Shown piece after piece: positions 21,713-57,678 of a stretch of DNA of 64,000 nucleotides (its first letter is position 1; each line of letters opens with the position of its first letter). The DNA lies in contig JABMNY010000031.1 of the NCBI GenBank assembly GCA_013204385.1, forward strand, positions 1,168 to 65,167, in the 5' to 3' direction. Source of the stretch: Candidatus Uhrbacteria bacterium (GTDB lineage Bacteria > Patescibacteriota > Patescibacteriia > UBA9934 > GWF2-40-263). The notes under the pieces were generated by a model. That model was not told the origin of the DNA. It searched no databases and was given only the letters and a program-made list of their open reading frames with translations. Made by a program: the position numbers and the translations under genes.

Positions 21713-21716
21713 AAGA

Positions 21717-23620: not shown

Positions 23621-23648
23621 ACTTTAACATCGACACTTCACCTGTCAA
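23621..23648 (-). promoter_or_regulatory. candidate ftsZ promoter (minus strand: TTGACA - 16 nt - TAAAGT with a TGn extension)
   Basis: Read from the reverse complement; lies between the ftsA terminator and ftsZ. Confidence 0.3.
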
Positions 23649-24973: not shown

Positions 24974-25351
24974 TTAACCCACCGAGCTCACAAGCTCCTG
25001 CAGATAAGGATAGAAGATAACTATCCCCACAATCGCTGCAACAATTGAGGCAATGAGAACGGCCCCTGCCATAATATCTTTAATATCCTTAACGATTGGG
25101 TGAATTCTTGGCTTGAACGCATCGACAATCCGCTCAAAAATGCTGTTGATGAGCTCTAGAACAAGCACAGAGCCAATCAAGAGGATAAGAACGATCCATT
25201 GATATGCCTGAACTTGTACAAAGGCTCCTAGGAGAAGAACAGCAATACTGGCAAGTAGTTGAATACGGAAACTTTGCTCAGAGACAAACACGACACGAAT
25301 CCCCCCTATCGCATGCCTCATACTTTTCAAAAATCGTCCAAAATGAATCAT
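24974..25351 (-). CDS. dgkA: diacylglycerol kinase / undecaprenol kinase (DgkA family)
   Basis: 125 aa, three TM segments, FKSMRHAIGGIRVVF N-terminus. Confidence 0.8.
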   Translation of the reverse strand: MIHFGRFLKSMRHAIGGIRVVFVSEQSFRIQLLASIAVLLLGAFVQVQAYQWIVLILLIGSVLVLELINSIFERIVDAFKPRIHPIVKDIKDIMAGAVLIASIVAAIVGIVIFYPYLQELVSSVG

Positions 25352-25785
25352 AATCGACTATCAATATCTAAGGCGGTTAATATCTGCTCCTGAAGGAAAA
25401 ACATCTTTTGGGCGTCGGTCTTTTTTTCATGATCGTGCCCATACAAATGAAGCACTCCATGCACAATGAGAAAACAAATTTCATCTCGAACACGATGGTT
25501 CATTTCTTGTGCTTGCCGTTTTGCTTGAGCATAATTCAAGAGTACCTCCCCCTTCATCTGTGTCCCATCAAGCTGAAAAGAGAGGACGTCTGTTATGCGA
25601 TCTTTTCCTCTCCACTCACGATTTAGTCTCTTCATCTGCACTGAAGAGATAAATCCAATTGAGATAGACTCGCTCTTTCGAACGTTTAGTACACGAGAAC
25701 ACTCTTTAAGAACCTGTTGAAGCAATCTAAGAGGTACTCTCTGTCCTCCTCGCAAGAGAGACTGATTCAATTCAGCCACAATCAT
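25348..25785 (-). CDS. ybeY: rRNA maturation endoribonuclease YbeY
   Basis: HGVLHLYGHDHE metal-binding motif (HxxxHxxxxxH). Confidence 0.9.
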   Translation of the reverse strand: MIVAELNQSLLRGGQRVPLRLLQQVLKECSRVLNVRKSESISIGFISSVQMKRLNREWRGKDRITDVLSFQLDGTQMKGEVLLNYAQAKRQAQEMNHRVRDEICFLIVHGVLHLYGHDHEKKTDAQKMFFLQEQILTALDIDSRL

Positions 25786-26834
25786 AGTGCTTCTTCGCTT
25801 ACATCTATTTGCTCAGATACCTCTTCCACGCTCACAACTTGAACACTATTAATCATCATTTGAAATGTTTGAAGATAATCAACACGTGTCTTGATACCTG
25901 TATCGTATTCAAACACCATCACTTGGGAACCAAGATCAATATACGCACTTAATTGATCTTCACCTTGAATAAGATCGAGACCATTTTTTGTTGTTCCAAT
26001 AATAGAACGATCTAATGCCAGTTGGACATCTGCCCAGTCTGGTAAGGTTTGCGCTGGACTCTTTTTAATAAATGAAATACGAAATCCCTCTCCTGTCTGA
26101 GCATCTAACACAAGCTCTTCCTCTGTTTCATCTACATCCCAACCTTCTGGATAATAGAATTCATAGGTCACATCTGAAATCGTACTGCTCATTGCTTTGA
26201 CCAATCCTGATTCAAAAAGCGTCCCAAGCGCACCTGGGTTATAACGATGAAACACCTCATTCCCATCTAAAAATCCATCTGAGTCCGTATCTGGTAAACG
26301 TGGATCTGTCCCGTACACTAATTTTTCTTCTGTATCTGTTAACCCATCTGAATCAGAATCTGTTCCTGGAAGAACTTCCACTGGAAATACCTCTACGGCT
26401 TCTGTTGGTTTCTCTACAGGTTTTGTCGTTGACTCTTCTGGGTCCGTCGACGTCTCTGTTGTTGGTGCAGGTCGAGTTGTTGTTGTCACAACAGGAGTTT
26501 CAGAGACTTGTGGGTTCAAACGAATTAAAACGTAACCACCAATTCCTAAAGCCAATAACACCACCACACCGATCACCATGATTTTTTTTGTTGCGGATGA
26601 TTTCCGAAGAGTTGAAGCTGGAGCTTTTGGTGGCGCCTTTGGTGGAAGTGGAACCCCTGGAGTTTTTACTTCAACAGGAGGTTGTGAGCTTCTTTTGTCC
26701 TCAGGCTGGTGCATAACACCTTGCGCTCCATGACGATATCGTTCAGGCATCACAAACACACGAGCGTCCACGCCTGGCGAGGAACTCTGCGCAATAGGTG
26801 GCTGTTCAAGTGATTGTGTTGTTTCCTGAGACAT
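25782..26834 (-). CDS. bitopic membrane protein with thrombospondin-type-3-like (DxDxDG) Ca-binding repeats, paralog 3
   Basis: Pro-rich cytoplasmic N-terminus, TM (IMVIGVVVLLALGIGGYVLI), extracellular TDSDSDGLTDTEEKLVYGTDPRLPDTDSDGFLDGNEVFHRYNPG, then a C-terminal domain; the 4-nt overlap with ybeY implies cotranscription. Confidence 0.6.
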   Translation of the reverse strand: MSQETTQSLEQPPIAQSSSPGVDARVFVMPERYRHGAQGVMHQPEDKRSSQPPVEVKTPGVPLPPKAPPKAPASTLRKSSATKKIMVIGVVVLLALGIGGYVLIRLNPQVSETPVVTTTTRPAPTTETSTDPEESTTKPVEKPTEAVEVFPVEVLPGTDSDSDGLTDTEEKLVYGTDPRLPDTDSDGFLDGNEVFHRYNPGALGTLFESGLVKAMSSTISDVTYEFYYPEGWDVDETEEELVLDAQTGEGFRISFIKKSPAQTLPDWADVQLALDRSIIGTTKNGLDLIQGEDQLSAYIDLGSQVMVFEYDTGIKTRVDYLQTFQMMINSVQVVSVEEVSEQIDVSEEAL

Positions 26835-26845
26835 ACGAAAGCGGA

Positions 26846-27463
26846 TTAACTTGATTCAGAAGGGGCTTCGCGCAACAAACCATCTCCATTTGGATCATAT
26901 CCCCCCTTTACTTCAGCTCCATCTAAGTATCCATCTCCATCCGTATCAGGATTAAGCGGATCTGTTTCCCATGTATAGACTTCTTCACGATCAAAAAGCC
27001 CATCACCATCTGTATCAGCCGCACGGGAACTCGTTCCGAGCTCCTTTTCCTCTTCGTCTGTGAGACCATCCTTATCTGTATCTAACGCAACAGCAGGCTC
27101 TTCAGGAACTTCCTCAACAATATCTTCTTCTACCACCGTTGTTGAAGTATCCTCTTGCGTTTGCACAGCAGATGACGCAGGTGGCTCTGGTGTAAGGGTT
27201 GATTTTGATCCCAAAATCTTCATAGACAAGAAGAAGGAAGCGGTAACCGCTACAAGGATTCCAACAACAAGTACAATTATCTTCCAAGAAAATCCCCCTC
27301 CTCCAGAAGCACTTTGACTCATCATCTGCGCTGCTTTCATCGCAGGACCTGTTGTTGAAACAGGGGCTTGTTCAGGGAGATCTGTCGGAGCTGTAACTTG
27401 GGGAGCAACTTTATCCGTTTGCTCAAACATGTCTTCAGGGTCCTTTTTTACATCATCAAACAT
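26846..27463 (-). CDS. bitopic membrane protein with TSP3-like Ca-binding repeats, paralog 2
   Basis: TM (IIVLVVGILVAVTASFFL), then DTDKDGLTDEEEKELG...DTDGDGLFDREEV...TDPLNPDTDGDGYLDGAEVKGGYDPNGDGLL. Confidence 0.6.
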   Translation of the reverse strand: MFDDVKKDPEDMFEQTDKVAPQVTAPTDLPEQAPVSTTGPAMKAAQMMSQSASGGGGFSWKIIVLVVGILVAVTASFFLSMKILGSKSTLTPEPPASSAVQTQEDTSTTVVEEDIVEEVPEEPAVALDTDKDGLTDEEEKELGTSSRAADTDGDGLFDREEVYTWETDPLNPDTDGDGYLDGAEVKGGYDPNGDGLLREAPSESS

Positions 27464-27489
27464 AGATTCAATATTAGTTCGTCAATAGA

Positions 27490-28305
27490 TTATTCAAGAA
27501 GACCTGGACCGTTTGGATTATACCCCGAAGCAACTTCATCACCGTCAGAATAGCCATCTCCATCTGTATCTGGATTCAATGGATCCGTTCCGTACTGAGC
27601 CTCCTGTGCGGTCGTCAGACCATCCGCATCCTCATCGGCCTCCTCATTAACTGAAGAATCTTCTTCTGGAACAGCTTGATCTTGTTGAGAGAGAGCGCTT
27701 AACACTAATTCGAGACAGTTCCCTTGAGCTTGTTCATCTATCATTTGATCACAATAGGATCGATCAAGTGTTTCTAAAGCAAGTTGCTGTAAAGGATCTG
27801 TAACAGCATCATCGATAAATTGCATCTGACAACTTCTCTTACTTGAGGTGAGAGAAATTAAGTCGCAATAGGAATGATCTTGCTTGTTAACTGCCAAGAG
27901 TCCATACACATCATCTAAACAATCCCTCATCCATTCCTCATCAGCAATGACCTTACAGTACGTATCCTCTACAACTGTACGAGCTAATGCCCAATGACAA
28001 TTATCCTGTTCTGTTTGTGAATCAAGAAGTAGACAAAGTTCGGACGATGCATGTGAAACAGCAAGATCCAAGATCTTTCCATTCTGACACGATTCAACAT
28101 TTTCAACCCCCTCGCATGCGTTCGAGGCATTCGTTGTAAGCTGTGAGACAGTCTCTTCCATCAAGAAGAATGACTGCTGACGCCCGTAAAATACACGAAA
28201 TAAAACGAACACCAAGACGATGAGAACAAGAACAATCCCGACACCAATCGCAATAGGCTTCCAGGGAATACTCCGTTCTTGCTGGGGATAATCATTCAAA
28301 TCCAT
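27490..28305 (-). CDS. bitopic membrane protein with Cys-containing repeats and a C-terminal TSP3-like motif, paralog 1
   Basis: TM (IAIGVGIVLVLIVLVFVLF), about six periodic Cys motifs (SYCDxxxxxxC), C-terminus DEDADGLTTAQEAQYGTDPLNPDTDGDGYSDGDEVASGYNPNGPGLL. Confidence 0.6.
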   Translation of the reverse strand: MDLNDYPQQERSIPWKPIAIGVGIVLVLIVLVFVLFRVFYGRQQSFFLMEETVSQLTTNASNACEGVENVESCQNGKILDLAVSHASSELCLLLDSQTEQDNCHWALARTVVEDTYCKVIADEEWMRDCLDDVYGLLAVNKQDHSYCDLISLTSSKRSCQMQFIDDAVTDPLQQLALETLDRSYCDQMIDEQAQGNCLELVLSALSQQDQAVPEEDSSVNEEADEDADGLTTAQEAQYGTDPLNPDTDGDGYSDGDEVASGYNPNGPGLLE

Positions 28306-28311
28306 AACTCA

Positions 28312-31300
28312 TTATTCGTAAGGACAGTACGTTATATTGAAGTCGCTGAATTCCATTGTTCCAGTTCCATAAAATGCATTTCTGAGTGGAATCACCTGTT
28401 CCGTTGACTGACAGGCAAACGCTGTTGGAAATGGAAGTTCGACATTTGAACCTGATTGAACTTCACTTGTTGTAGTATAGGTTCCATCGTCATCCGTTGT
28501 CGTAAATGTTACCCGTGTCCCAAGAATGGAATCCACAATCGCGGCATACATCTCAGCAATTTCGTCTGAGCTGGATGCTGAAAACGCATAATCTCCCTCA
28601 CAATCTCCAGTGGACGTCACGCTACTCCACGCACATTCATTACTAGACATATGTGCCATATATCCCTTTAGATCACTGTCTGTTGTGACCGCTGCTGAGT
28701 AAATGAGGATGTCACTTCTTGGCACACCTTCCGTAGATCCATCAATAAGTACATCGGAGATCTCAGCTACACACGCAGGAACATCCGCATAATATGATGT
28801 CGATGGATAATTAGACCATGCATATCCAGAACATCCGGTAGACGAACCAACATTGAAAGTGCTATTGAGACCTGGATCTCCATCAGATAAGAGAACTACA
28901 ATTTTTACTTCGGCTGTAGATGCGCTCAGGATAGAAATAGCTTCACTCAATCCGTTATACGTAGGTGTTCCATTTACTACAGAATCGGCATAATCATCAA
29001 GGATACTCATCATGCTTGACTCCGACGAATATAAACTCAATCCAATATCAATTTCCGCTCCATCATCTACAGAACAATCTTCATCTTCACAATCAGCATT
29101 ATACTGACAGACATTGCCATCATCTGACCCCCCACTACAAAGTCCTGTTGATCCAGAGAAGGAGACGAGGGAAATCTGCATGGTCGCATCCAGTGAACCG
29201 TACGCATCAAAAAGATCTGAAACAGCATCTCGCGTTGCTTCAACCACATAGTCAATTCTTCGAATTCCAACAGGAGCTCCAGAAGCTTCACATGTCGACC
29301 CATCACATGATGAAGAACTTGTACACGCATCTCCGTCATTGGTTCCCCCATTACAATACTGATTCGTGTCCACATCCCAATCCATACTTCCTGAAAGATC
29401 CGTGACGAATACAATATCAACATCTGGATGCTCCACATCTTCATCATTAATATCTGCTGTAATCGATGTTGCAACACTGCAGGCTGGAATATAGAGCGCT
29501 GCATTATCAGGAGAATCGCCTTCATCATTCAGATAACTATAAAGCCTAATGGACTCTCCAGGAGTAGCTCCTAACGATTCACTCACAACAAATAATCCTG
29601 TCGTCTCATAAGATGTCGGACATGATGATCCGCAATTATCAGCGCAAATTGGTGCCACACAATCTCCTCCACTACAGGAATTGACGTCATTTCCTGATGT
29701 AAGCTCAGAAACCGTTCCACTACTTGCGTACGTTGTGTAGTTGAGTGTGCAATATTCTCCATTTTCCGTTCCCCCATTACAAACTCCAAGCCATCTACAG
29801 GTATAGCCATCTGAATCTGTTGTGTCATATTCCTCTGAAGCACAGGAGCCCGTTATGCTTCCTGATGTTGAATCATAATTCTTAAACGCGGTTGAATACG
29901 TTCCGTCACACACTTCAGAACCATTCACAACCCCATCTCCACAATAGGCTCCAGAGGTCGTCTTATACTGACAGATTGTGTTGCAATAATTACATGTACT
30001 GCCATAGTCGGCTTCACATAGCACTCCATTTCCTCCATGACTATCAACTTCCCCATCATCACAAGACTCGACGCCAACATAGACATAATCATCTCCACAG
30101 ACGTTTTCTTCACAGGTATTCAAACACGAATCATTGTTTGAGGAGTTTCCATCGTCGCACGCTTCATCTCCTTCCACTGTTCCGTTTCCACAAGTCTGAT
30201 CTCCTCCAACAGGACCCGTCCAAGTTGTTGGCCATTCACAAGATGAAGAGCAGGTTCGATAGCGATAAAGGTCGTATGTATTTGTAGAACATGCTCCACC
30301 ATTATCTTCACAATCTTCATTTGTATCTGTTGAATCACACGTATCTCCCGCATCATCCCCACCAATACAAATCGTTCCTGAACCCGCTGCTTCATATCCT
30401 GTCCCACCACAGGTATCCGTTCCATCACAATCACTGGTGGTCGTACAAGTTGTCACTCCATCAGAACAGAGTTTTCCTTCCCAGGATTCATAATCCCCGT
30501 CACAAGATTCACTTCCATTTACAATTCCATCTCCGCAAGAGAGCCCAGGAAGCGTGCAATTATACGCACAGTTATCTCCACCCGCATCATACTGTCCGTT
30601 TGAAGTTGCGCACCATGGAGAAGCAGTTGTTCCTGTTGCATCTGGACCTATTGTTGCCCAACTACTTGATTCTAAAATCACACTTGCATACGTGCTCGTT
30701 GTTCCACAATCACATTGCTCAGAACCAGCTAAATATCCATCTCCACAGGAGAATGAACCTGTGGCAGTACAAGTGTCTCCACAATGTCCGTAGGTTCCGT
30801 TCAATGAGCCATCATCACAATCCTCACCTGTTTCCACGACACCATTTCCACAATCATAAGGGATGCATTCTGCTCCTGCAAATTCTGCTTCTGTTTGATC
30901 TTGAAAATCTGAACAATCTGATAAACAGGAAACGGCAATCACTCCACCAGAAGCAGTGCAAGCAATGGTCATTGTATCTCCAATCTCACAACCTTCTAAC
31001 GCTCCTTGTGTTCCATCTCCACATAACGCTGAGTCTCCCCAAGTGCTTCCATCACAGAAGACCGGTGTCAATGAAAATCCGCTCATGACAGAACTTGGCG
31101 CGTTTCCTGTTGGATACTCAACTGTAATCGTTCCCTCGTCTGTAGAATCCGCATCTATATCTTCGGTCCATTCATATTCTCCAGAAAGTTCAAGGGTTGC
31201 ATAAAGTTTGTACGCCTCGCCTCCGACACTCTGATAGCCATACACATGTGAATTCTCTGGACACATAAACGTTCCAGATTCTCCGTTCCAACAAGAAGCA

Positions 31301-34300: not shown

Positions 34301-37300
34301 CTTTCACATCCTTCGTCTCCTACACAGGCATTACCCACATCTGAAGCAGATGTGCACATAGCGCTTGCACACGTCTCATTACAGGATGCGTCGTTTGTAC
34401 ACTCCGCTCCTGAGGAACTACATGTTGCATCACACTGTACTGATCCTTCATTTAAACACACAGCAGAACATCCATCTCCAGCCTCTGTCCCGCCATCATC
34501 ACATTCTTCGGAATCTTCTACTGATCCATTTCCACAAACTCCGTCAGCGATCGTGACAGGAGCCCCCGCATTCAAGCACGCTGCTGTACAGTAACTTGCA
34601 ATATCAGATGTCAGCTCGATCGCTCCATTTGAAATCATGTAGGAAACGACCTCATCTGAATCCGTGGTACTGGTACTCACTCCATTTTGATTTTGCGCGT
34701 CAGTCGAAACCCATGCATCCCAAAGGTAAGATCCTGACTGAAGCGTTTGACCCTGATCTGAACAATCATCAGGGGCTCCTAATGCAAATGCATCAAACTC
34801 TGCGCGATCTCCCACATAGTAGAGCGTTGCGACAGATGGATCGAGTGTAAGCGAATCAACCGCACAACTCACCGCATCATTTTTTGTTCGAAACACCCAT
34901 GAGAACGCATCTTCAAAATACCGGTTATCATCCGTTCCGTAATTGGAACCTGAGTCAGAAAGAGCAACTCCCGTACAAGAATAAATTTCTGTCGCATCAA
35001 CAACTACGCGATACCAGGTATTGGGCTCTAAGGTCTCTCCATCATTAAAATTAATATAGAACTTCTGGGTTGAATCTTCTTCTGTCTCACAGGTATCGCC
35101 TGAAAAACTCACTGAGGCAACTTCTGCAAACTCCGTCAGTTCTGATGTTTCACACAATGAGTTGTCACATTCATATAATGTGACAGCGCCTGCTCCAATC
35201 GTTCCTCCATCCATCTTTGTATTAAATTCAGCCCAAGGCAACGCGTTCACACACGCGGTTGTACATTGTGGAAAGTAATCTTCAATTTCTGGATCGAGAA
35301 AATTAATCGTCAACTCCCCCTCACCCGATGGATCTCCTTCTGCGTCTGTAACGGTTGCGGTAATAATGGCTGGATCATCTGAAGTCGTTTCAGATTGTGC
35401 ATACACTTCATTCACACACACACCAGACCATTCAGATGTTGGAATTAACACATCGTCTGAAACAGAATCCCAATACAAGGTATATCCAGCACAACTCAAC
35501 GCAACACAACTATCGTTTTGTGCGGTCAGCTGAGCTGTGTAGTCAACGTATGCTTGTTCTGTTTGCGTATATTCCCCTGGACGCACATTCACGTCTCCCA
35601 CCTCACATAATTCCGTAGAGCTACTTGTTGTAAACTCCCAATCAAAATCTTCCGCGAGATATCCTCCATCTGCACTTTGGATTTGATCTCCTCCCTGAAG
35701 AGAGACCTGGTAATGTGTCCCCGCTTCAAACAACCCAGACGTAGGTTGCCAGGAAAATCCTGTTTCGTCTGGAGTAGGCATTGTGCCTTCGACAACCTCC
35801 CAAGTCTTACACTCTCCTTCACTTGCCAAGACACAAGACTCGTCCTCGTCTTCACAATCTCCAACATCGTCACACGCATCTCCTGAAAACGAGCAATAGC
35901 GGTCTTCTGCGGTTTCTTCTTCAAGGGTAAATTCTGAACTACAAGAACGAACAATAACCGTCGATGTCGTAAGTGTATCGCCGTTCATCGCCATATTAAA
36001 CTCAGCTTGCACACTTGCATTCAAACAAATATCGTCTGGGTCGCTCCATCCATCCCACGGAGATGGAGAAGTTCCATCTTCATCACAGGCAAGAATGACA
36101 CGCGGGGTATTTGGTGTAATCCCTGTCGTAATTTTAAATGCATAATGTGCTGACACTTCTTCTGTCTCGTCACAGGTTTCTGAACACGAACCATTAGAGC
36201 AACAACTCTCCCCCTCAGAACACAGGTCTGCATCCTCGCGACAATCTCCTACACTAAATGTCACAGAATTAGATGAATACCCACTTTCAGACTCTTCAAT
36301 ATAAACAGGTCCAGTTGCGGCTTCATCTGGAACGATCACAGATGAAATTTCATCATTTGCCCAAACCCCAAAAGTGGTCTCTTGTGTGGAATAAAAGACA
36401 ACCGTTCCATCATCAGACCCAAGATTCTCTCCGTAGAGCGTAATTTCAGATTCCGCTGGTCCAGCAGAAGGATCGATATTACAGATCGATGGTCCGGGCA
36501 CCTCATCAAGAACAACAAAATCCTCTGCTCCTGATGTATTTCCATCCGCGCGCTCAACAGTCAATGCGTGCGTGATTGCCTCAATCGCATCCTCATCTTC
36601 TGTAAGATACGTCTCAGGGACCTTCATGGTAATAGAGGTGTCATGCCAAAAATCTTCACCACAGACATCAGGAAAATCTGTATCTCCTAATGCAGTATAC
36701 CCAAGCGATTCGTTATCAAAGAAAACAGATCCAGTAGACGTTCCAAATCCCGTTCCATAAATCGTAATGTACTGACCTGCTGGCCCCCAATTGTCGGCAT
36801 CATCACATGTGGCCCCTTCACTACAATCATCATCAGATCCACAATGGGTATTATCATCTGAACATGCCTGCCAACCTGAATCAATAAAAGAAATGATTGG
36901 ACTAGAAGAACTTGAAGAGTCAGCTACGGTAAATGTAACTTTATTTGATCCAACACGGACTGATTCACAAGACCCTCCATCATCTCCACAATCGTCGTCA
37001 TCTCCACAGTACTCAAGTGTTTCAGAGCACCAAGACGCAGCACAACTCTCACCTGCATCTGTGTCACAATCTTCATCGTCTGTACAAGTATCTCCTGTAG
37101 CTACGTTATCTGTATCAACACACAGATAGTCCCCCGTAAACACTTGTCCACTATATCTTCCGGAATTCACATTTGGAACGGAAAGATTCAAGAGTGTGTC
37201 GGACCATGAAACATAGGTACTTGCTTCGTAGTTTGTAAAATAAAACGTAGAAGATCCTTGTGAATCTCCAAAACTGTTTCCGTACACTTCGATGGTAGAT

Positions 37301-38976
37301 CCATAGGTGTCTGAATCTGGATCAAGGAGACAAATTCCAGGTCGCGCAATCGCATTTACATCAAAGTCTGAAATGGATGGACCATAATCATCATCTGTTC
37401 GTTCTGTTTCGTCATCACTTGTCACAACAGAGATCGGTCCATCAATTGCCCCAGAAGGGACTTGGACAATAATCTCAGAATCTGACCATTGAATCTCAGA
37501 ATTACATTCGTAGGCAGATGCAGAGGTCTCGTCACTATTTTCTGTTCCCAAGAAATAGAGAACACCTTCCTCATCTCCAAACCCTTCTCCAGAGATTGTA
37601 ATCAGATTTCCTTCAGCTCCATCTCCTGCAGAAACACTCTCAATTTTTGGAATGGTAACGCATTGTCCGTCGACACATTGTCCGCTTGCACAATCGGAAT
37701 CTTCAGAACATGAATCTCCATCGCAAGACCCACAGTAGTAAGCACTTGAAGAATCTCCTCCGCAATCCACTTCTGTTTCACCCAAATCTTCATCGAGCAC
37801 TTCGTTATTACAATTTGCTGCACGCAACACAATTGAAACACGAGATGCCGTATCAGAATTACCGGCACAATCGTATCCTTTTGCCCAAATGTTATACGTT
37901 TCATTTGTGGTATATCCTTCTGTGTCCCATTCCTCAGCTGTATCACTAAAGAATGCATTTTCAACATTTCCTCCTAGCAGTTCACCTGCATTTGAATAAT
38001 CAACTCCTGAGGAATAGATCGCTTCCTCATCATCAATGACATAAAAATCAACGGTTGAAACACCACTATCATCTGATGTCAGAGCTTGTAAAAGTTCAAT
38101 AGAACCCGCATAAAAACTCTCACCGTTTTCAGGAGCATCGATCTCAACGGTTGGATCTGCGATATCCACCTCTGATCCTGTTGTAAAACTAAAGGAGCAT
38201 GGATACGAACTTGAACAGGTCAGCGATGAACCAGCTGATGAATCGATTACCGTTGAATCGAGATCAATCGTATAACTACTGAGGGGATCAAAACAGGACT
38301 CATCTTCATATGGACTGTCACATGCTTGCGAAGGGGTAAACGTTACTGTACGACTCGAAACAATGAACGTTCCCTCAACAGCATCTCCTCCAGCATCTCG
38401 AATAAGGATACCTTCTTCCACAGTGTCCCCATCAATTTTCTTTGAGAAAACAAACTGGAGCTGAAGATTCTGCAATGCCTCTGCGCACTCTGTGTTCACA
38501 GAACTCAAATAAAATGTGGAGCTTCCACTTCCGTCTGTATAGGAACCTGACGAGGACGAGCTTCCAGAAATATCACCACTCGTCGCCCCCACAAGCGCAT
38601 TTAAAATAAACTGTGCGATCGCAAAACTTGAAAATACCAGTATGAGTCCGATCACCGAATTAATGATGATCTTCTTAGCCTTTGCAATCCTCTCAGGACT
38701 TCCTCCTGCCGTCATGTACACAAACCCTCCGTAGAGTATGAACACGACCGTCACAACTCCCACGAGCGTAATTGCCGTTCGAATGAGACGTGCAATGATC
38801 ACAGTGATGCTTGCTGTGGTGGAGAACCCAGCAGTCTCTGCGAATGACTCAAGATTCACATCTTGAGCAAATACTGGCGCGGCAACGAAAATCCCAACAC
38901 ATAATATTAGTGCAAGGAAAACGCCTAAGTAAGTTGCCCGAGTGAATCTACGCATGTCGTTAAAGTTCAGTTTCAC
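28312..38976 (-). CDS. giant (3554 aa) cysteine-rich secreted surface protein: signal peptide, VirB2/TrbC-like two-helix membrane module, Ig-like domains, four IPT/TIG domains, two clusters of Myxococcus-type Cys-rich repeats and a C-terminal vWA domain; putative adhesin
   Basis: One uninterrupted 10.6-kb ORF. N-terminus: signal peptide ending FAQ, then IIARLIRTAITLVGVVTVVFILYGGFVYM...AKAKKIIINSVIGLILVFSSFAIAQFIL. IPT/TIG-like blocks (e.g. PKIESVSAGDGAEGNLITISGEGFG...). Many CGDG/CGNG-x5-8-E-x-CDDGN units. MIDAS motif DIVFVTDLSGSM. Plus-strand His-rich ORFs across this span are antisense artefacts. Confidence 0.85.
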   Translation of the reverse strand: MKLNFNDMRRFTRATYLGVFLALILCVGIFVAAPVFAQDVNLESFAETAGFSTTASITVIIARLIRTAITLVGVVTVVFILYGGFVYMTAGGSPERIAKAKKIIINSVIGLILVFSSFAIAQFILNALVGATSGDISGSSSSSGSYTDGSGSSTFYLSSVNTECAEALQNLQLQFVFSKKIDGDTVEEGILIRDAGGDAVEGTFIVSSRTVTFTPSQACDSPYEDESCFDPLSSYTIDLDSTVIDSSAGSSLTCSSSYPCSFSFTTGSEVDIADPTVEIDAPENGESFYAGSIELLQALTSDDSGVSTVDFYVIDDEEAIYSSGVDYSNAGELLGGNVENAFFSDTAEEWDTEGYTTNETYNIWAKGYDCAGNSDTASRVSIVLRAANCNNEVLDEDLGETEVDCGGDSSSAYYCGSCDGDSCSEDSDCASGQCVDGQCVTIPKIESVSAGDGAEGNLITISGEGFGDEEGVLYFLGTENSDETSASAYECNSEIQWSDSEIIVQVPSGAIDGPISVVTSDDETERTDDDYGPSISDFDVNAIARPGICLLDPDSDTYGSTIEVYGNSFGDSQGSSTFYFTNYEASTYVSWSDTLLNLSVPNVNSGRYSGQVFTGDYLCVDTDNVATGDTCTDDEDCDTDAGESCAASWCSETLEYCGDDDDCGDDGGSCESVRVGSNKVTFTVADSSSSSSPIISFIDSGWQACSDDNTHCGSDDDCSEGATCDDADNWGPAGQYITIYGTGFGTSTGSVFFDNESLGYTALGDTDFPDVCGEDFWHDTSITMKVPETYLTEDEDAIEAITHALTVERADGNTSGAEDFVVLDEVPGPSICNIDPSAGPAESEITLYGENLGSDDGTVVFYSTQETTFGVWANDEISSVIVPDEAATGPVYIEESESGYSSNSVTFSVGDCREDADLCSEGESCCSNGSCSETCDETEEVSAHYAFKITTGITPNTPRVILACDEDGTSPSPWDGWSDPDDICLNASVQAEFNMAMNGDTLTTSTVIVRSCSSEFTLEEETAEDRYCSFSGDACDDVGDCEDEDESCVLASEGECKTWEVVEGTMPTPDETGFSWQPTSGLFEAGTHYQVSLQGGDQIQSADGGYLAEDFDWEFTTSSSTELCEVGDVNVRPGEYTQTEQAYVDYTAQLTAQNDSCVALSCAGYTLYWDSVSDDVLIPTSEWSGVCVNEVYAQSETTSDDPAIITATVTDAEGDPSGEGELTINFLDPEIEDYFPQCTTACVNALPWAEFNTKMDGGTIGAGAVTLYECDNSLCETSELTEFAEVASVSFSGDTCETEEDSTQKFYINFNDGETLEPNTWYRVVVDATEIYSCTGVALSDSGSNYGTDDNRYFEDAFSWVFRTKNDAVSCAVDSLTLDPSVATLYYVGDRAEFDAFALGAPDDCSDQGQTLQSGSYLWDAWVSTDAQNQNGVSTSTTDSDEVVSYMISNGAIELTSDIASYCTAACLNAGAPVTIADGVCGNGSVEDSEECDDGGTEAGDGCSAVCLNEGSVQCDATCSSSGAECTNDASCNETCASAMCTSASDVGNACVGDEGCESRSCSEAGLCEDFEDADTSCSNDGVCDSGSCVGACSLSGGVCSGASSECVYYSGDSCERSGSGCCGNGVRDWSASAGGEDCDDGNITSGDGCSSSCKNEGARSIGSVCGDGTQDWVVNTGGEDCDDGNTSSGDGCSRNCLLEGSASEDDVYAICGDGTIDEGEDCDPGDYSAEDDGCSSECLYEGSSVCPTSDSANCCGNGDVDTGEACDGDEGCSSSCLWLGSSYEYATPSFCGDGIVGTAEDCDALSTASFSAGDYGVAQVATGAPTEVNEDTGYAISTISVVVDEDVEGEATLRLQCACTTDNSCGAAGLGCGESNCCYERPTIGELSPADNSVAFLAGTDEGFCRNSAVWIEFSESMDETTFGTSEDLDGDGTIQEDEFDSNLYIDLVSVDSDGDGAQETVSDIADCPSGYIGSLGSESVSFGGKIWHFIKSVVLGLFGREVQASSTFSCYVPVTSYSIVQNGDGTSRVYLRFSELLQENAIYKLVVVGDETPTDSEKTGVLSQNDVTLCIDDDCEDEYFSQKFAIGEEICDLDRVLLEDTGDVDAEEYESLSIQYFSTTGEEHAFVATPQTYRAGGYQEISPIEGLYDWDWSWASSITDSASTNVITPETEEPEDTTRSFTASGNDGSEIVLAIATITDDELFDPSTAEIEDDETTDADESSPARTVSGTLEVRALLCENPWPSLASETLSFPYVEDVLPSYFSFYYCRDAGEDGTEDDLPALGDPIDVTSFDSSVIRQEIIFKVEGSSDAIGVRVLPNASYLSPADWVEEQQFTGAFTQTELDSYSAVESGNTLYAAAANLIESSGDIYPNMYVVSYNDNASAESEEIFSQLLTNWRFNANNLEVTNINLCQDESDGTYALNEDEEYVSCEWDGDCYEEFEEETIVCDGQKAKLTRDMQRLIDVTALASSLDSYGEENGHCAVTQGQSCDADEDCPGTEVCVVGFPDVQSGTFIPAISNSIWSSWNASLANELGTTLPTDPINEFFNCSEDGYDSASCWNGESGTFMCPENSHVYGYQSVGGEAYKLYATLELSGEYEWTEDIDADSTDEGTITVEYPTGNAPSSVMSGFSLTPVFCDGSTWGDSALCGDGTQGALEGCEIGDTMTIACTASGGVIAVSCLSDCSDFQDQTEAEFAGAECIPYDCGNGVVETGEDCDDGSLNGTYGHCGDTCTATGSFSCGDGYLAGSEQCDCGTTSTYASVILESSSWATIGPDATGTTASPWCATSNGQYDAGGDNCAYNCTLPGLSCGDGIVNGSESCDGDYESWEGKLCSDGVTTCTTTSDCDGTDTCGGTGYEAAGSGTICIGGDDAGDTCDSTDTNEDCEDNGGACSTNTYDLYRYRTCSSSCEWPTTWTGPVGGDQTCGNGTVEGDEACDDGNSSNNDSCLNTCEENVCGDDYVYVGVESCDDGEVDSHGGNGVLCEADYGSTCNYCNTICQYKTTSGAYCGDGVVNGSEVCDGTYSTAFKNYDSTSGSITGSCASEEYDTTDSDGYTCRWLGVCNGGTENGEYCTLNYTTYASSGTVSELTSGNDVNSCSGGDCVAPICADNCGSSCPTSYETTGLFVVSESLGATPGESIRLYSYLNDEGDSPDNAALYIPACSVATSITADINDEDVEHPDVDIVFVTDLSGSMDWDVDTNQYCNGGTNDGDACTSSSSCDGSTCEASGAPVGIRRIDYVVEATRDAVSDLFDAYGSLDATMQISLVSFSGSTGLCSGGSDDGNVCQYNADCEDEDCSVDDGAEIDIGLSLYSSESSMMSILDDYADSVVNGTPTYNGLSEAISILSASTAEVKIVVLLSDGDPGLNSTFNVGSSTGCSGYAWSNYPSTSYYADVPACVAEISDVLIDGSTEGVPRSDILIYSAAVTTDSDLKGYMAHMSSNECAWSSVTSTGDCEGDYAFSASSSDEIAEMYAAIVDSILGTRVTFTTTDDDGTYTTTSEVQSGSNVELPFPTAFACQSTEQVIPLRNAFYGTGTMEFSDFNITYCPYE
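28777..29439 (-). other. von Willebrand factor type A domain of the giant protein (about aa 3180-3400)
   Basis: DIVFVTDLSGSM MIDAS motif (DxSxS) followed by the alternating beta/alpha pattern (...IVVLLSDGDPG...). Confidence 0.6.
29887..31029 (-). other. Cys-rich repeat cluster 2 of the giant protein (about aa 2650-3030)
   Basis: CGNGVVETGEDCDDGSLNG; CGDGIVNGSESCDGD; CGNGTVEGDEACDDGNSSNNDSCLNTCEEN; CGDGVVNGSEVCDG. Confidence 0.5.
33577..34545 (-). other. Cys-rich repeat cluster 1 of the giant protein (about aa 1478-1800)
   Basis: Units such as CGNGSVEDSEECDDGGTEAGDGCSAVCLNEG and CGNGVRDWSASAGGEDCDDGNITSGDGCSSSCKNEG resemble the Myxococcus cysteine-rich repeat (established family, recalled from memory). 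Confidence 0.5.
36247..37650 (-). other. region encoding four IPT/TIG-like domains of the giant protein (about aa 443-910)
   Basis: Positions derived by counting residues; motif pattern P.I.S..P..G..GT.ITI.G.GFG......V.F...... repeated four times. Confidence 0.5.
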
Positions 38977-40840
38977 TATTATTTGGAAGAACGTAATCGC
39001 TAGGAGCTGGACTCACGCTTTGTTCTGCTTCAACCGTTTCCTGCCACCCTGTCTGACATGCAGATCGAGATGCAATCCCGTTACAACAATAAGGTTTTTC
39101 TTCATCTCTTCCCTCCGTACACGTTGATCCAGGTCCTATGGCTGGATACATACAGATCTGGTAGGCACTCTTAATGTCATTTGTAAGAACAGGCCAGTAG
39201 TCCCATCCTCCCTCATCTGTACTTACAAAGCTTGGATGTTCAATAAGCACGGTCGTTCGTTCGGTTTCATCATTATTTTCCTTCCGAACAGCAAACCACG
39301 ATTCATAATACGGATCGGGCCACAATGACACACTATGCGTTTTGACTGTTGAAGACTTGAGGTACGTATTAAACGTGATTTCCACATCGTTTGTCTGACT
39401 AATCTCATCTTCTTCAACTCCAGGATCTAATCCTTCTTCTATAATCTGTGGAACTGTGTCTTCAATTTCATCGGTTGTTGTAAAATTCCATTCCTTATTA
39501 TCCGTCTCATCCCCGTCAGAGCACTCAATCGTATCAGAGGCGGAACCACAGGCTTCTCCATCATGATCCCCATCTAATGAGTTTGCAGCGGCGTCAACCA
39601 GACCATCAAACGTAAACCCGGTGGACTCTGCTTGAGGCGCTTCATCTTCATTGATGGTAGCAGCCTTAGCAACCACATCAACAAGTTGATTTGAAGGAAG
39701 ACAGTAAATTGTGTCTCCACAAGGATCTTCTCCACACGCATCCGTTGTCGTGAAACTGAGTGTGCGATAAGCATTACTAATCTCGAAGGTTCCCTCTACC
39801 ACCTCACCAGCCTCGTTATAGACTAAAATATTTGTAAACAAATCCTCATCCCCAATATACGATCCTGTACTTGCCACAGGATCCATCGCCTCAGAGAAGT
39901 TAATTTCAATGGTGATATTTCGAGGTTCTTGTGCATCTTGCTGAGGAACAACAGATGTCACATATGGAGGGGTCAAATCAATTTCTGTTGAAACTTCAAA
40001 TGTCCAACTATATCCACTCGCATATGCTCCAGAAAATGCAGATGAGCCTGATTCTTTTTCAATATTCGTCGTCAGCGTAACCGTATAATTCGTATCCTCT
40101 TCTGCTGAACCAAGATACTCAACAGGATCAAAGACGAACACTTCAAGATCTTCATCATACGTCACGACCACAGCCTCTGACTCCAATGCTTCACCTGCTC
40201 CCTGTTCTGTTGGATAGATGATAATACTATCCGCATTCAAATAATCATCTGTTGAATCGTCCCCATCATAATTACTCACAATTGATTCTGGATTGATTGC
40301 TTCTTTGAAACTGACAAAAATCCGTGTATTTCGAGCAATGTCCCGCGCATCACGCTCAGGATAATGGTCATCTAAGACACCTCCTCCTAAGGAACCAGAC
40401 AAAGGTTCAGAATACGCGTCAGCGACCGCTGAGGCTGTCCCTGTGAATGCCGCCTCAAGCAAACGACTTAAAATGAATGAAGCGATGCTATAGGCAGAAA
40501 AAATAATGAAGAGCCCAATGATAGACTGCTGAAGAACCTTCTTAGCTTTTTTAATTGGTTCTACTTCCCCACGAGCAAGGAGATAGAGAAATCCAGCATA
40601 AATAACCAGGCAAACAAAGATGATTCCAACAACCGTCAACGCGACACGAATGACGCGCGCAATAATAATCGCAATGTTGTCTGTCGGAAGCGTTGAAGCT
40701 GTTCCGAATTGTTCAAATGCCGTTTGCTGAGCAAACGTCGGATGAACATTCACAAGAAAAAATAAAACAGAAAACGCTACGACTCCAAGAAGGAGCGCGC
40801 GCAATGTGGGTGCTTCAAATTTCATAAAGGGACGGTCCAT
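38960..40840 (-). CDS. 626-aa secreted protein with the same VirB2/TrbC-like two-helix N-terminal module followed by Ig-like (Big_5/SbsA-type) domains; partner of the giant protein
   Basis: Signal peptide ending FAQ; IIIARVIRVALTVVGIIFVCLVIYAGFLYLL...KKAKKVLQQSIIGLFIIFSAYSIASFIL aligns with the giant's N-terminus; TPPYVTSVVPQQ...INFSEAMD Ig-like block; 17-nt overlap with the giant gene. Confidence 0.7.
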   Translation of the reverse strand: MDRPFMKFEAPTLRALLLGVVAFSVLFFLVNVHPTFAQQTAFEQFGTASTLPTDNIAIIIARVIRVALTVVGIIFVCLVIYAGFLYLLARGEVEPIKKAKKVLQQSIIGLFIIFSAYSIASFILSRLLEAAFTGTASAVADAYSEPLSGSLGGGVLDDHYPERDARDIARNTRIFVSFKEAINPESIVSNYDGDDSTDDYLNADSIIIYPTEQGAGEALESEAVVVTYDEDLEVFVFDPVEYLGSAEEDTNYTVTLTTNIEKESGSSAFSGAYASGYSWTFEVSTEIDLTPPYVTSVVPQQDAQEPRNITIEINFSEAMDPVASTGSYIGDEDLFTNILVYNEAGEVVEGTFEISNAYRTLSFTTTDACGEDPCGDTIYCLPSNQLVDVVAKAATINEDEAPQAESTGFTFDGLVDAAANSLDGDHDGEACGSASDTIECSDGDETDNKEWNFTTTDEIEDTVPQIIEEGLDPGVEEDEISQTNDVEITFNTYLKSSTVKTHSVSLWPDPYYESWFAVRKENNDETERTTVLIEHPSFVSTDEGGWDYWPVLTNDIKSAYQICMYPAIGPGSTCTEGRDEEKPYCCNGIASRSACQTGWQETVEAEQSVSPAPSDYVLPNNSETEL

Positions 40841-40937
40841 GGCGATTACTTCAGGATCAATTGGATACCATTGATCATGTGTAAATCTATTGTATCTTAT
40901 TTAGACCGTTCTGACAGATAAAGATTGTGGATAGAAA

Positions 40938-40967
40938 CAAAAAAACGGGCAAGCCCCGTTTTTTTGT
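40938..40967. terminator. bidirectional terminator (A7-acgggcaagccccgt-T7) between the yqeY fusion and the 626-aa gene
   Basis: Read directly. Confidence 0.55.
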
Positions 40968-40987
40968 TTGATGAACTGTTGTAGATG

Positions 40988-41752
40988 TTAACTTATTTGT
41001 TGTAAGGCAATCGTACAAAATGCAAAAAGCGCCGCAACAATCATGGTAGAAAAAACACCGATGGTAATTTTACTAATGGCTCCATCATGTTCTTTATCTC
41101 GATAAGAAGCCGTCATGTATTGGAAACCCCCATTCAAGATAAGTGTGATTGCCACGATCCCTAACCAGAGAGTGAGCACTCGGAACATCCGTAAAAGGAA
41201 TTCTGTGTACGACACTCCATTTGCAAAGTTTTCAACTAACGGAATTGCCGCCTGCGCCTCATGAGCAACAAGACTCATCGCAAACATGACTGGAATAAAT
41301 GCTCCAAGGAGTGTCCCAACAATCTGCTTCACACGAGTACCGTCTGCGCGTCCTGCCACCGCCTTCATGGCGACACCCATCGCGCGTCCCATCTCCTCCT
41401 TACTTGTCACCCCACTTGCTTCAATCGCCTCTTTTACAATGACCATCAATTCCTCGTCAGGCATCTGTGCAGGAAGATACTGTTCAAGCACAACGACTTC
41501 CACCTGTGAACTCACTGCCATATCTTCACGTCCACCTGTCACAAAAGATTCAATAGAATCTTTTAATTGTTTGACCTGCGACTTAATAACATCTTGAACT
41601 TCTGCATCTGAAAGTTCATGCTGAAGATCTATTTGTTTATTCTTAATCGCAGATAGCAACAAACGCAACGTAGATAACGTTGCGTTGTCTTTGGCTTTCA
41701 TGGCCAATTTCATGTTCTGTGTAATCGTCTCTATCAAAGACATACGACTCAA
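40988..41752 (-). CDS. yqeY: GatB/YqeY-domain protein fused to a C-terminal VirB2/TrbC-like two-helix membrane module
   Basis: N-terminal 150 aa (TQNMKLAMKAKDNATLSTLRLLLSAIKNKQIDLQ...) is a typical YqeY. The C-terminal 100 aa (FLLRMFRVLTLWLGIVAITLILNGGFQYM...AISKITIGVFSTMIVAALFAF) has the same architecture as the N-termini of the two downstream surface proteins. Directly follows rpsU as in Firmicutes. Confidence 0.7.
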   Translation of the reverse strand: MSRMSLIETITQNMKLAMKAKDNATLSTLRLLLSAIKNKQIDLQHELSDAEVQDVIKSQVKQLKDSIESFVTGGREDMAVSSQVEVVVLEQYLPAQMPDEELMVIVKEAIEASGVTSKEEMGRAMGVAMKAVAGRADGTRVKQIVGTLLGAFIPVMFAMSLVAHEAQAAIPLVENFANGVSYTEFLLRMFRVLTLWLGIVAITLILNGGFQYMTASYRDKEHDGAISKITIGVFSTMIVAALFAFCTIALQQIS

Positions 41753-41754
41753 TT

Positions 41755-42003
41755 TTATCGACCTCTTCGGTTTGTTCCTCGAGTTGTTTCATCGAGTTGT
41801 CCAATACGAATGAGATATTGTCGTTTTGCTCCGGTGATAATTCGACGAAGGGCACTTTTCTTCATCTTGGCTTTATTCGGCTTGTCTTCGCGAAAGCGGA
41901 TCTTTCTTGTCTGAAGCATGTTTCCACTTTGCTGAACACGACGACTAAAACGTCGATAGATTCCTTCAAAACTCTCACCTTTACGGCGTTTTACGTTAAC
42001 CAC
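41755..42003 (-). CDS. rpsU: 30S ribosomal protein S21
   Basis: MVNVKRRKGESFEGIYRRFSRRVQQSGNMLQTRKIRFREDKPNKAKMKKSALRR; basic, S21-like. Confidence 0.75.
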   Translation of the reverse strand: MVNVKRRKGESFEGIYRRFSRRVQQSGNMLQTRKIRFREDKPNKAKMKKSALRRIITGAKRQYLIRIGQLDETTRGTNRRGR

Positions 42004-43520: not shown

Positions 43521-44129
43521 TTAAAGGTTGTATTCAGGAACATCAAACGTTCCGATGCGTGAGAGTGGAAGCCCCCGTACCCACACCCGGCCAATCACAT
43601 CATCTCGATGAATTGGGCCAAAACTTCTTGAATCGAGTGAGGCGTCTCTATTGTCACCAAACACATAGTATTCATCTTCGCCGAGGGTCACTCTTACTTT
43701 TCCAGTCGTTTGTTCTCCCCCAAGGTACGTTTCCTCTAGGACAAATCCGTTTGGATGCTCTGTATTGTAAACAGTAATGTTTCCTCCTGTTACCTCGATC
43801 GTCTCCCCGGGAAGGCCGATAATGCGCTTGATAAAAAACTGACTCGGATCACGTGGATATCGGAAGACGAGAATTTCTCCACGGAATGGATCACGAAATC
43901 GATAGGAAAGCTCATCAATAATAAGGTATTCGTGATCATAGAAATTTGGTTCCATGGATGCCCCCTTTACATAAAAAGGTTGAATCAAAAAATACCGAAT
44001 CGGAATAATAATGGCACTTGAAATCAAAACGATTTGAACCACTTCAAACAAAAATGAAGCAACAGATCCCCCTACTGGCCCAAAACGTTGATAAAATTTC
44101 TCTTCAATAGATGGAAGTCGAATGTGCAT
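43521..44129 (-). CDS. lepB: signal peptidase I
   Basis: VKGASMEPNF (Ser box), ...FIKRIIGLPGETIEV (Lys box), and a GDNRDAS box. Confidence 0.9.
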   Translation of the reverse strand: MHIRLPSIEEKFYQRFGPVGGSVASFLFEVVQIVLISSAIIIPIRYFLIQPFYVKGASMEPNFYDHEYLIIDELSYRFRDPFRGEILVFRYPRDPSQFFIKRIIGLPGETIEVTGGNITVYNTEHPNGFVLEETYLGGEQTTGKVRVTLGEDEYYVFGDNRDASLDSRSFGPIHRDDVIGRVWVRGLPLSRIGTFDVPEYNL

Positions 44130-56592: not shown

Positions 56593-56595
56593 AGG

Positions 56596-57369: not shown

Positions 57370-57447
57370 AACAGTAGCGCAATTATACCTAAATTTGGGT
57401 TCAAGCGAAAGTTGACGTATGATGAATCTATAAACGTAAACAATCAT

Positions 57448-57678
57448 ATGCCAAAACAGGAAAATGATTTTCTCAATATGCTTCGTGACGCCGTCGGTGG
57501 AGCGGTTGCAGGACTGATCACAGGACTCGTCTTGGGGATCGCGATCCAGTTCATCAGTTATATCGTGCTTCCAATAGAGTTTCGTGATGGACCTCAAGTC
57601 ATTGCTCCATTCCTAGGAATGGGATTCGGAACCCTCGTAGGAGCTATTTTAGGAGGAATGGTGAGTTTAAAGAAATAG
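57448..57678 (+). CDS. small two-TM glycine-zipper membrane protein
   Basis: MPKQENDFLNMLRDAVGGAVAGLITGLVLGIAIQF...GMGFGTLVGAILGG. Confidence 0.4.
   Translation: MPKQENDFLNMLRDAVGGAVAGLITGLVLGIAIQFISYIVLPIEFRDGPQVIAPFLGMGFGTLVGAILGGMVSLKK

Follow-up and report, generated by a model that had tools for sequence, protein, structure and literature searches.

A conserved locus of predicted surface proteins headed by VirB2-like hairpin modules lies between rpsU and ybeY in Candidatus Uhrbacteria

The stretch of DNA analysed here (the window: 64,000 nucleotides of contig JABMNY010000031.1, assembly GCA_013204385.1) comes from a groundwater Candidatus Uhrbacteria, an ultra-small bacterium belonging to the Candidate Phyla Radiation (CPR), and its best protein matches are also to Candidatus Uhrbacteria. 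This lineage is placed by NCBI in Candidatus Uhriibacteriota, within the Parcubacteria group, and by GTDB in the class ABY1 (Table S1 of PMC12102498). The subject of this work is a block of six genes at 25782-41752, all on the minus strand, between rpsU and the ybeY-dgkA-ftsA-ftsZ string. The block encodes a YqeY fusion protein, a protein of 626 amino acids (aa; p626), a protein of 3554 aa (the giant) and three smaller membrane proteins of 271, 205 and 350 aa (t271, t205 and t350). The open reading frames (ORFs) bear out an earlier account of this DNA, the preliminary description, in which six co-directional genes were placed between yqeY/rpsU and ybeY with the last one overlapping ybeY by 4 nt (25782-25785); its estimate of ~15.7 kb for the block was slightly low, since 15,971 bp are measured. 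Judged from the sequence, three paralogous hairpin modules of VirB2-like (T4SS_pilin) type stand in tandem at the start of the block: one makes up the small-pilin part of the YqeY fusion, and the other two head p626 and the giant. The coordinates of all genes and domains are collected in Table 1.

The module was recognised in p626 and in the giant by PF18895 (T4SS_pilin; T4SS, type IV secretion system), whose cut-off is 26.6 bits over a hairpin of ~71 residues. In p626 the match reaches 29.3 bits when the N-terminal fragment is searched by itself, and 26.5 bits over the full length. Sub-threshold likeness was also detected between the p626 N-terminus and the TrbC family PF04956 (21.8 bits, E 2.2e-4, against a cut-off of 27.9 bits), and between p626 and NF045849, a pilin-like family of Mycoplasma integrative and conjugative elements (22 bits); some orthologues have precomputed PF04956 matches. 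In the giant, a signal peptide (aa 1-37, ...VFA↓QD) stands ahead of the module, and A37 and Q38 at the AxA↓Q cleavage site are invariant in the p626 and giant modules. The relationship between the two proteins extends beyond the hairpin, as paralogy to p626 covers the first 433 aa of the giant (tblastn of aa 2-433 against a p626 orthologue, 27% identity, E 2.7e-28). Orthologues of p626 are 600-655 aa long, share 44-100% identity and fall into at least 120 clusters.

The C-terminus of the YqeY fusion, by contrast with these two modules, has no Pfam pilin match, and PF18895 is absent from it even at E <= 10. It comprises a signal-peptide-like transmembrane (TM) segment ending in a conserved AxA, here HEAQA, followed by a two-TM hairpin with the motif GGF.YmtAS.RD. 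When a profile of 117 fusions was compared by hhalign with the pilin domain of the p626 family, the two aligned over 106 columns with a probability of 98.6% and an E-value of 5.6e-16, while reversed and column-shuffled controls gave E 0.15-0.39. The VirB2-like character ascribed to the fusion in the preliminary description is consequently retained on profile-profile comparison only, by which the YqeY C-terminus appears pilin-like. When PDB sequences were searched with a profile of the pilin domains, only chance matches to designed helical repeats came up, and no solved VirB2 or TraA. All three modules share K-rich (positively charged), predicted cytoplasmic loops, signal peptides and two TM helices by sequence-based topology, and the K-rich loops lead us to expect the hairpins in the membrane and the C-terminal extensions outside.

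The joining of YqeY to the first module can be followed among relatives. Orthologues of the fusion are ~250 aa long, share 47-100% identity, form at least 120 clusters and are named Uhrbacteria; the NCBI start is an ATG three codons downstream of the TTG used here, giving 251 aa. In five related loci (L025, L026, L027, L029 and L030) yqeY stands alone (133-147 aa) and the hairpin is encoded by the next gene, of 80-160 aa, which in L025 carries its own signal peptide. The fusion thus arose within the lineage, where yqeY became joined to gene one of an array of three pilins. No small pilin was detected in the most divergent relatives, where p626 and the giant are still found.

The giant begins with a GTG codon, and an alternative ATG at 38955 (Met8) is used in some orthologues. 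Its composition is strongly biased, with 191 Cys (5.4%), 18.5% D+E and 2.4% K+R. Behind the pilin module follow Ig-like domains, of which Big_7 scores 23.6-26.6 bits around a cut-off of 24.1 and passes only on the N-terminal slice, and then an IPT/TIG run. The first cysteine-rich zone is matched by TIGR02232 at 63.3 bits in five stretches (cut-off 20.8) and by DUF4215 at 31 bits on a slice, and a second one lies at aa ~2700-3100. The first ~100 aa of the well-conserved central region have a Mog1/PsbP/DcrB/DUF1795-type fold. Near the C-terminus lies a VWA-like domain that scores below cut-off in the giant, both for VWA_2 (PF13519, 22.5 bits vs 27) and for VWA (PF00092, 18.0 vs 23.8); PF00092 matches are present on giant orthologues, and the residues of the metal ion-dependent adhesion site (MIDAS; DxSxS, here DLSGS) are kept by 30-35 of the 36 orthologues that cover this site in a 41-row alignment. 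The protein ends in ...FSDFNITYCPYE, a C-terminus with no LPXTG motif and no hydrophobic tail or TM segment, and no HemolysinCabind (RTX) or type I secretion system (T1SS) matches were found in the giant or its neighbours. Most domain calls of the preliminary description are recovered by profile searches, namely YqeY, Big_5, TIG, TSP3 and the cysteine-rich repeats; its VWA call finds backing in the conserved DLSGS motif and falls short in profile score.

Cysteine is the most conserved residue type of the giant (0.75 vs 0.36 overall), and conservation reaches at least 80% at 139 of the 191 Cys, in keeping with extracellular modules held together by disulfide bonds. Orthologues are colinear with it, one at 74% identity over 2405 aa and others at 65% and 41-43%, and in the 41-sequence alignment identity stays at 0.3-0.5 along nearly the full length. 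The N-terminal 1200 residues alone recover at least 756 representative matches at E <= 1e-30, mostly of proteins of 3000-4000 aa. A hypervariable adhesin of the diversity-generating retroelement type, or one growing by repeat expansion, was considered and ruled out, as the giant is colinear, evenly conserved and without tandem expansion relative to its orthologues.

The three genes downstream of the giant encode predicted single-pass proteins with TSP3 repeats, a calcium-binding type of repeat recognised by PF18884 (TSP3_bac, cut-off 25 bits). In t350 the match lies just under the cut-off (24.5 bits); there the residues D159, D161, S162, D163 and G164 of the DSDSDG motif are invariant in 87 homologues. 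Ahead of its TM segment t350 carries the motif MPERYRHGA (aa 29-37, window 26724-26750), four of whose nine positions are invariant across the same 87 homologues and which may serve for docking at the cytoplasmic face. Its C-terminal domain (aa 205-340, 25815-26222) is modelled by AlphaFold2 (AF2) with pLDDT > 90 and matches CyanoP in Foldseek (E 1.4e-4). This domain and the central domain of the giant belong to the same fold class (Mog1/PsbP/DcrB), and an hhalign comparison between them gave a probability of 7%, so that homology is unsupported. Among 35 scorable loci, essentially every one retains the triplet of single-TM TSP3 genes (~270, 210 and 345 aa).

To place the block among its relatives, one genome per species was scanned with the conserved central segment of the giant, which yielded 41 loci. 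In all of them the tblastn comparison gave the order rpsU-yqeY-p626-giant-TSP3 genes-ybeY-dgkA-ftsA-ftsZ on one strand, wherever the locus extends far enough, and six further contexts, found via YqeY or the 350-aa protein, agree in order. Homologues of the YqeY fusion (72%, 68%, 56% and 53% identity) stand in the order lepB-hisS-rpsU-yqeY, followed by 0-2 small genes and then by genes for a pilin/Big_5 protein of ~610 aa and a giant of ~3400-3600 aa. Contexts of t350 homologues, in turn, run through the giant, two TSP3 genes and the t350 homologue into ybeY-dgkA-ftsA-ftsZ-nrdR-htrA-pyk, and both block ends are found on one 502-kb contig (JGI, Joint Genome Institute). The median identity to the window proteins is 40% for the giant, 46% for p626 and 38.5% for t350, next to 48% for YbeY, 55% for DgkA, 60% for YqeY and 80% for FtsA; the lowest identities among relatives are 29% for the giant and 52% for FtsA. 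Such slow, housekeeping-like evolution speaks for a central role in the lineage as opposed to a strain-specific one, and would suit a structural function at the surface as well as attachment to a conserved target.

The premise from which the preliminary description started, a Firmicutes-like gene order, is reasonable, given that rpsU, yqeY and phoH are adjacent in Listeria (PMC4424878). Its view of the locus as core to the organism agrees with the presence of the block at one site in these species-level genomes and independent contexts. The same order, together with a G+C content of 0.43-0.475 in the locus and 0.43-0.46 in the immediate flanks, contradicts the notion of an island recently acquired by insertion, and the relatives turn out to carry, as an old feature, the six-gene arrangement that the preliminary description had named as a refutation, save for the known functions it had listed with it. 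Recent horizontal transfer is rejected in view of uniform G+C and universal synteny, and no mobile-element genes and no tRNA were found in the flanks of the block. Insertion or replacement in an Uhrbacteria ancestor is possible; on these comparisons the block is an old, vertically inherited core part of the lineage.

The only variable junction of the block is the slot between yqeY and p626, with 0-2 extra genes in relatives. In L003 (10908-11660) one additional gene, of 250 aa, occupies the slot; the 502-kb contig has an 82-aa and a 212-aa AAA_17/18 gene there, and L039, L042, L043 and L047 (~1100-2250) have a ~365-aa ORF that is HflX-like (GTPase) by eye only plus a 181-aa gene. In the divergent relative L038 (385-3009) the genes proximal to yqeY are replaced by an 874-aa protein upstream of p626 that is FG-GAP/VCBS-like by eye, with repeated DLNGDG motifs. 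Several of the species-representative records (L009, L017, L022, L036, L038-L042, L044 and L046) are titled 'uncultured Gammaproteobacteria bacterium ... binchicken'; they contain an Uhrbacteria-type locus with Uhrbacteria-like FtsA and FtsZ, and these names look wrong.

Table 1. Genes and domains of the six-gene block and of its neighbours, with positions in the window
Feature	Position	Strand	Basis
lepB, signal peptidase I (Peptidase_S26)	43521..44129	(-)	translation; PF10502 on orthologues in L001-L005; tblastn match in L036
rpsU, ribosomal protein S21	41755..42003	(-)	PF01165 E 6.7e-5, below cut-off; position kept in relatives
YqeY-pilin fusion, 254 aa, TTG start	40988..41752	(-)	ORF
YqeY (GatB/YqeY) domain of fusion, aa 8-148, predicted cytoplasmic	41309..41731	(-)	PF09424 148.7 bits, profile positions 2-142 of 143
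VirB2-like small-pilin module of fusion (predicted), aa 149-254	40991..41308	(-)	hhalign; hydrophobic segments; conservation
p626, 626 aa: signal peptide, VirB2-like hairpin, Big_5 Ig-like domains, Cys-containing C-terminal region	38960..40840	(-)	ORF; Pfam
T4SS_pilin module of p626, aa 60-123	40472..40663	(-)	PF18895; AxA↓Q site
Big_5 Ig-like domain of p626, aa 289-367	39740..39976	(-)	PF13205 E 2.1e-14, 2 stretches
Giant, 3554 aa, GTG start at 38976	28312..38976	(-)	ORF; 17-nt overlap with p626 stop
T4SS_pilin module of giant, aa 54-124	38605..38817	(-)	PF18895 39-46 bits; NF045849 29.2 bits, sub-threshold; hydrophobic segments
Big_5 (aa 171-266) and Big_7 (aa 275-320) of giant	38017..38466	(-)	Pfam
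IPT/TIG run of giant, aa ~443-908, at least 4 copies, Cys-rich linkers between	36253..37650	(-)	PF01833 E 4.8e-18
Cysteine-rich acidic repeats of giant (myxo_disulf_rpt / DUF4215), aa ~1480-1800	33577..34539	(-)	TIGR02232, DUF4215
Best-conserved central region of giant, aa 2290-2610	31147..32109	(-)	no Pfam match
VWA-like C-terminal domain of giant, aa ~3185-3450	28627..29424	(-)	MIDAS motif DLSGS (3193-3197), Cys-rich insertion, motif LLSDGDP
t271, 271 aa: single-pass, Cys-containing ectodomain (10 Cys), C-terminal TSP3 repeats	27490..28305	(-)	PF18884 39.8 bits; one hydrophobic segment
t205, 205 aa: single-pass, three TSP3 (calcium-binding type) repeats	26846..27463	(-)	PF18884 51.0 bits, 3 stretches
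t350, 350 aa: N-terminal cytoplasmic segment, one TM, TSP3 repeats, C-terminal PsbP-like domain	25782..26834	(-)	631 homologues
ybeY	25348-25785	(-)	Pfam; synteny
dgkA	24974-25351	(-)	Pfam; synteny
ftsA	23695-24954	(-)	Pfam; synteny
ftsZ	22287-23504	(-)	Pfam; synteny

The surroundings of the block are uniform in direction, every gene from 22.2 to 44.2 kb being on the minus strand in the order lepB, hisS, rpsU, YqeY fusion, p626, giant, t271, t205, t350, ybeY, dgkA, ftsA, ftsZ, nrdR, an HtrA-like protease and pyk. The housekeeping neighbours are backed by Pfam, with clear matches for YbeY, DAGK_prokar, FtsA and FtsZ. Spacing is tight at most junctions: 2 nt between rpsU and the YqeY fusion, 147 nt between the fusion and p626, a 17-nt overlap of p626 and the giant, 6 nt between the giant and t271, 26 nt between t271 and t205, 11 nt between t205 and t350, and a 4-nt overlap at ybeY/dgkA as at t350/ybeY; the ftsA-ftsZ gap measures 190 nt. 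From the tight spacing it is plausible that the block and ybeY-dgkA-ftsA form one transcript. A consensus promoter scan found 21 promoter-like sites where 33 were expected from shuffles, and a terminator scan 15 terminator-like sites against 14 in shuffled sequence, with no enrichment of either. The best sigma-70-like site of the region (TTGACA-16-TAAAGT with an upstream TG, 23621-23648, minus strand) falls inside the ftsA-ftsZ gap, sites overall not being above shuffles, and ftsZ may have its own promoter there. Three genes upstream of the pilin array lies lepB, in an order lepB-hisS-rpsU-yqeY that is conserved in relatives; its product is a candidate for cutting the pilin-like modules at their AxA sites, or may be a plain housekeeping enzyme.

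Other features of the window were recorded as well. A tmRNA gene with the tag peptide ANNVMAMIKNAFSVPSFAPVLA lies at 5562-5982 on the plus strand (Rfam 98.5 bits, with ARAGORN in agreement). A parA (AAA_31/CbiA) and parB pair at 55729-57597 on the minus strand may indicate a replication origin nearby, and GC skew is negative over most of the window. Two large ORFs with overlapping ends (434 aa and 826 aa; 59075-62798, minus strand), beside tRNA-Met and tRNA-Leu, gave no Pfam match at E <= 0.001. Up to three genes for HtrA-like trypsin/PDZ proteases are present on the minus strand (20489-21736, 1229-2314 and 15128-15895), two of these matches being sub-threshold (23.2 and 21.3 bits vs a cut-off of 27.6), and the HtrA-like gene after nrdR is syntenic in relatives.

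The reading that we favour, and to which we give somewhat better than even chances, takes the block for a core apparatus of Uhrbacteria, inherited vertically and anchored by hairpins, that forms a surface fibre or serves adhesion, and not for an acquired island. In this monoderm CPR bacterium, the pilin-headed proteins would be inserted via Sec and cut by signal peptidase, and the hairpins, possibly packing together, would keep the C-terminal extensions outside the single-membrane cell. The first module would be a small pilin, which in this lineage extends the upstream YqeY at its C-terminus. The second, in p626, would bear ~500 extracellular residues with Ig-like domains, while the third, in the giant, would bear ~3400 extracellular residues comprising Ig/TIG domains, disulfide-rich acidic repeats, the Mog1/PsbP-like domain and the distal VWA/MIDAS domain. 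The giant would in this way project as a disulfide-stabilised, very acidic fibre, probably tens of nm in length or more, and bear a metal-dependent binding domain at the tip. At the membrane, this fibre would be tethered or stabilised by the three single-pass TSP3 proteins, which would bind calcium, and the whole block would be expressed together with ybeY-dgkA-ftsA-ftsZ. Such an apparatus would probably serve to attach the bacterium to a partner cell or a surface, or build a layer of surface fibres. Several points weigh against this interpretation. The link to VirB2 consists of a Pfam family name and of the sub-threshold TrbC and NF045849 matches, and the VWA assignment is likewise sub-threshold in the giant itself. 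The 41 loci were picked by presence of the giant, and genomes without it lie outside the sample. Absences of VirB4, considered below, come from draft metagenome-assembled genomes of ~1.0-1.1 Mb and are only suggestive. In addition, an evolutionary rate like that of YbeY and a non-repetitive stalk are unusual for host-specific adhesins, and a structural role fits them at least as well.

Several other explanations have to be weighed. The three proteins could be true T4SS pilus subunits served by a VirB4-type machine encoded elsewhere, with the small pilin as the major subunit and p626 and the giant as minor or tip subunits whose C-terminal extensions are displayed on the filament exterior. C-terminal epitope fusions of F-pilin are displayed on pili, so that a C-terminal extension is topologically possible, and a T4SS_pilin-type hairpin is predicted in all three proteins. 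VirB2-like pilin arrays are moreover known in Patescibacteria and essential in Southlakia (PMC12102498, PMC12857230, PMC10633639), and VirB4 is reported in three of the six cluster-bearing Uhrbacteria assemblies (GW2011_GWC2_41_11, GW2011_GWE2_46_68 and CG_4_9_14_3_um_filter_50_9; Table S1 of PMC12102498). It is, however, not reported in the other three (CG10_..._48_16, RIFOXYA2_FULL_40_9 and RIFOXYB12_FULL_58_10; PMC12102498), and neither the 64-kb window (VirB4, VirB6 or other components) nor the relatives' 10-kb flanks with gene tables contain a T4SS gene. In the most divergent clade no small pilin was detected, and p626 and the giant are kept; no precedent was found in the literature for a 3400-residue extension on a filament subunit. 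For one cluster-bearing assembly, GCA_000996355.1, the rows consulted in Table S3 of PMC12102498 list VirB4, TrsD, T4CP and VirB3 and no VirB2; as far as those rows go, the pilin-headed proteins of the block were apparently not registered in the survey. On balance, we regard true pilus subunits as unlikely.

A somewhat different emphasis results if the block is taken as a structural envelope layer or scaffold, that is, an S-layer-like or wall-associated fibre coat serving integrity or division and not adhesion. The universal presence of the block at one locus beside ftsA and ftsZ would suit such a function, as would the YbeY-like rate and a giant that is strictly colinear without variation in repeat number. 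Both the giant and t350 hold domains of the Mog1/PsbP/DcrB/LpqN type, a fold frequent in envelope-biogenesis proteins. The conserved distal VWA/MIDAS motif, on the other hand, is typical of ligand-binding tips, and one membrane-anchored giant gene per genome does not resemble a small self-assembling lattice subunit; a structural layer is rated as improbable. As for a recently acquired adhesin island inside a housekeeping operon, the yqeY-ybeY interval of Firmicutes does hold other genes, as the adjacency seen in Listeria (PMC4424878) illustrates, and the yqeY-p626 slot varies among relatives. Yet the same genes occupy the same site in the 41 genomes and six contexts, their divergence tracks that of the housekeeping neighbours, and there is neither a compositional anomaly nor a mobile-element gene or tRNA flanking the block, which leaves this explanation barely credible. 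A more far-reaching reading can be put forward tentatively, as a speculation well short of even odds. The VirB2-type hairpin would have been repurposed without VirB4 as a self-associating module that builds a new surface organelle, in which the small pilin (tethered to YqeY before cleavage), p626 and the giant would join in one hetero-oligomeric fibre, stabilised by the three calcium-binding TSP3 proteins; it would be produced constitutively, along with the genes for ribosome maturation and division, and be indispensable for partner-dependent life.

Comparison with known systems helps to delimit the block. Like the VirB2-like arrays of other Patescibacteria, described in Ca. Southlakia epibionticum ML1 and TM7x (PMC12102498, PMC10633639), it consists of tandem paralogues in a CPR organism with a signal peptide and a two-helix hairpin that respond to T4SS_pilin/TrbC-type profiles. 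Those arrays, however, comprise small, fast-diverging pilins often located near virB4 (PMC12102498, PMC10633639), whereas in Uhrbacteria two modules carry extensions of 500 and 3400 residues, the first forms a fusion with YqeY, T4SS genes are missing from the vicinity, and slowly evolving one-to-one orthologues occupy a site between yqeY and ybeY. The giant recalls the fibrillar adhesins SiiE and LapA and the 7651-aa protein of Mobiluncus (PMC10619420) in being long and acidic, with an Ig-like stalk, a predicted calcium association and a putative distal ligand-binding domain, here VWA-like. Unlike the SiiE, LapA and sortase types, it has an N-terminal VirB2-like hairpin as its putative anchor in place of a T1SS retention module or LPXTG motif; no RTX repeats and no C-terminal sorting signal were found in it, its stalk is non-repetitive and Cys-rich, and it is conserved across a candidate phylum and not strain-variable.

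A further likeness concerns the CglD/MtsD-type proteins of Myxococcus (NF033765, NF047639) and TIGR02232, where TSP3, VWA and disulfide-rich acidic repeats occur together in surface adhesion proteins. Only the repeats match in this case, at 15-28 bits vs cut-offs of 400-800, and the myxococcal proteins are outer-membrane lipoproteins of diderms without a pilin module. The giant genes of Omnitrophota (10.1101/2023.11.21.568195) are similar in their very large size, in belonging to ultra-small bacteria that probably depend on partners, and in having pilin-type genes among their conserved neighbours. They encode up to tens of thousands of residues and are preceded by a system of more than 10 subunits resembling type II secretion systems and type IV pili (T2SS/T4P) (10.1101/2023.11.21.568195); in addition, they belong to another lineage and have no VirB2-type module fused. 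Finally, the same housekeeping genes flank the interval in the Firmicutes string rpsU-yqeY...phoH-(pgpH)-ybeY-dgkA, with the difference that in Uhrbacteria the interval is made up of the pilin array and the TSP3 genes, and that ybeY-dgkA is followed by ftsA-ftsZ-nrdR.

No earlier description was found in the literature on PF18895/T4SS_pilin, on large pilin-headed CPR proteins or on Uhrbacteria adhesins. We consider the block a conserved form of the Patescibacteria pilin array that had not been described before, with VirB2-like modules at the head of proteins of 626 and 3554 aa and one module fused to YqeY. A T4SS pilin hairpin serving as the head of very large predicted surface proteins, or fused to a housekeeping protein, was not described in the survey of PMC12102498. 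The CPR, or Patescibacteria, makes up a large share of bacterial diversity and is thought to live attached to other cells, and its surface structures are almost unknown outside Saccharibacteria. In genomes of ~1 Mb (sizes from Table S1 of PMC12102498) the block takes up ~1.5% of the sequence. It offers concrete targets for cryo-electron tomography, metaproteomics and co-culture in p626, the giant and the t350 family, and its intact retention at a single locus across a candidate phylum makes it a prime candidate for a lineage-defining surface apparatus.

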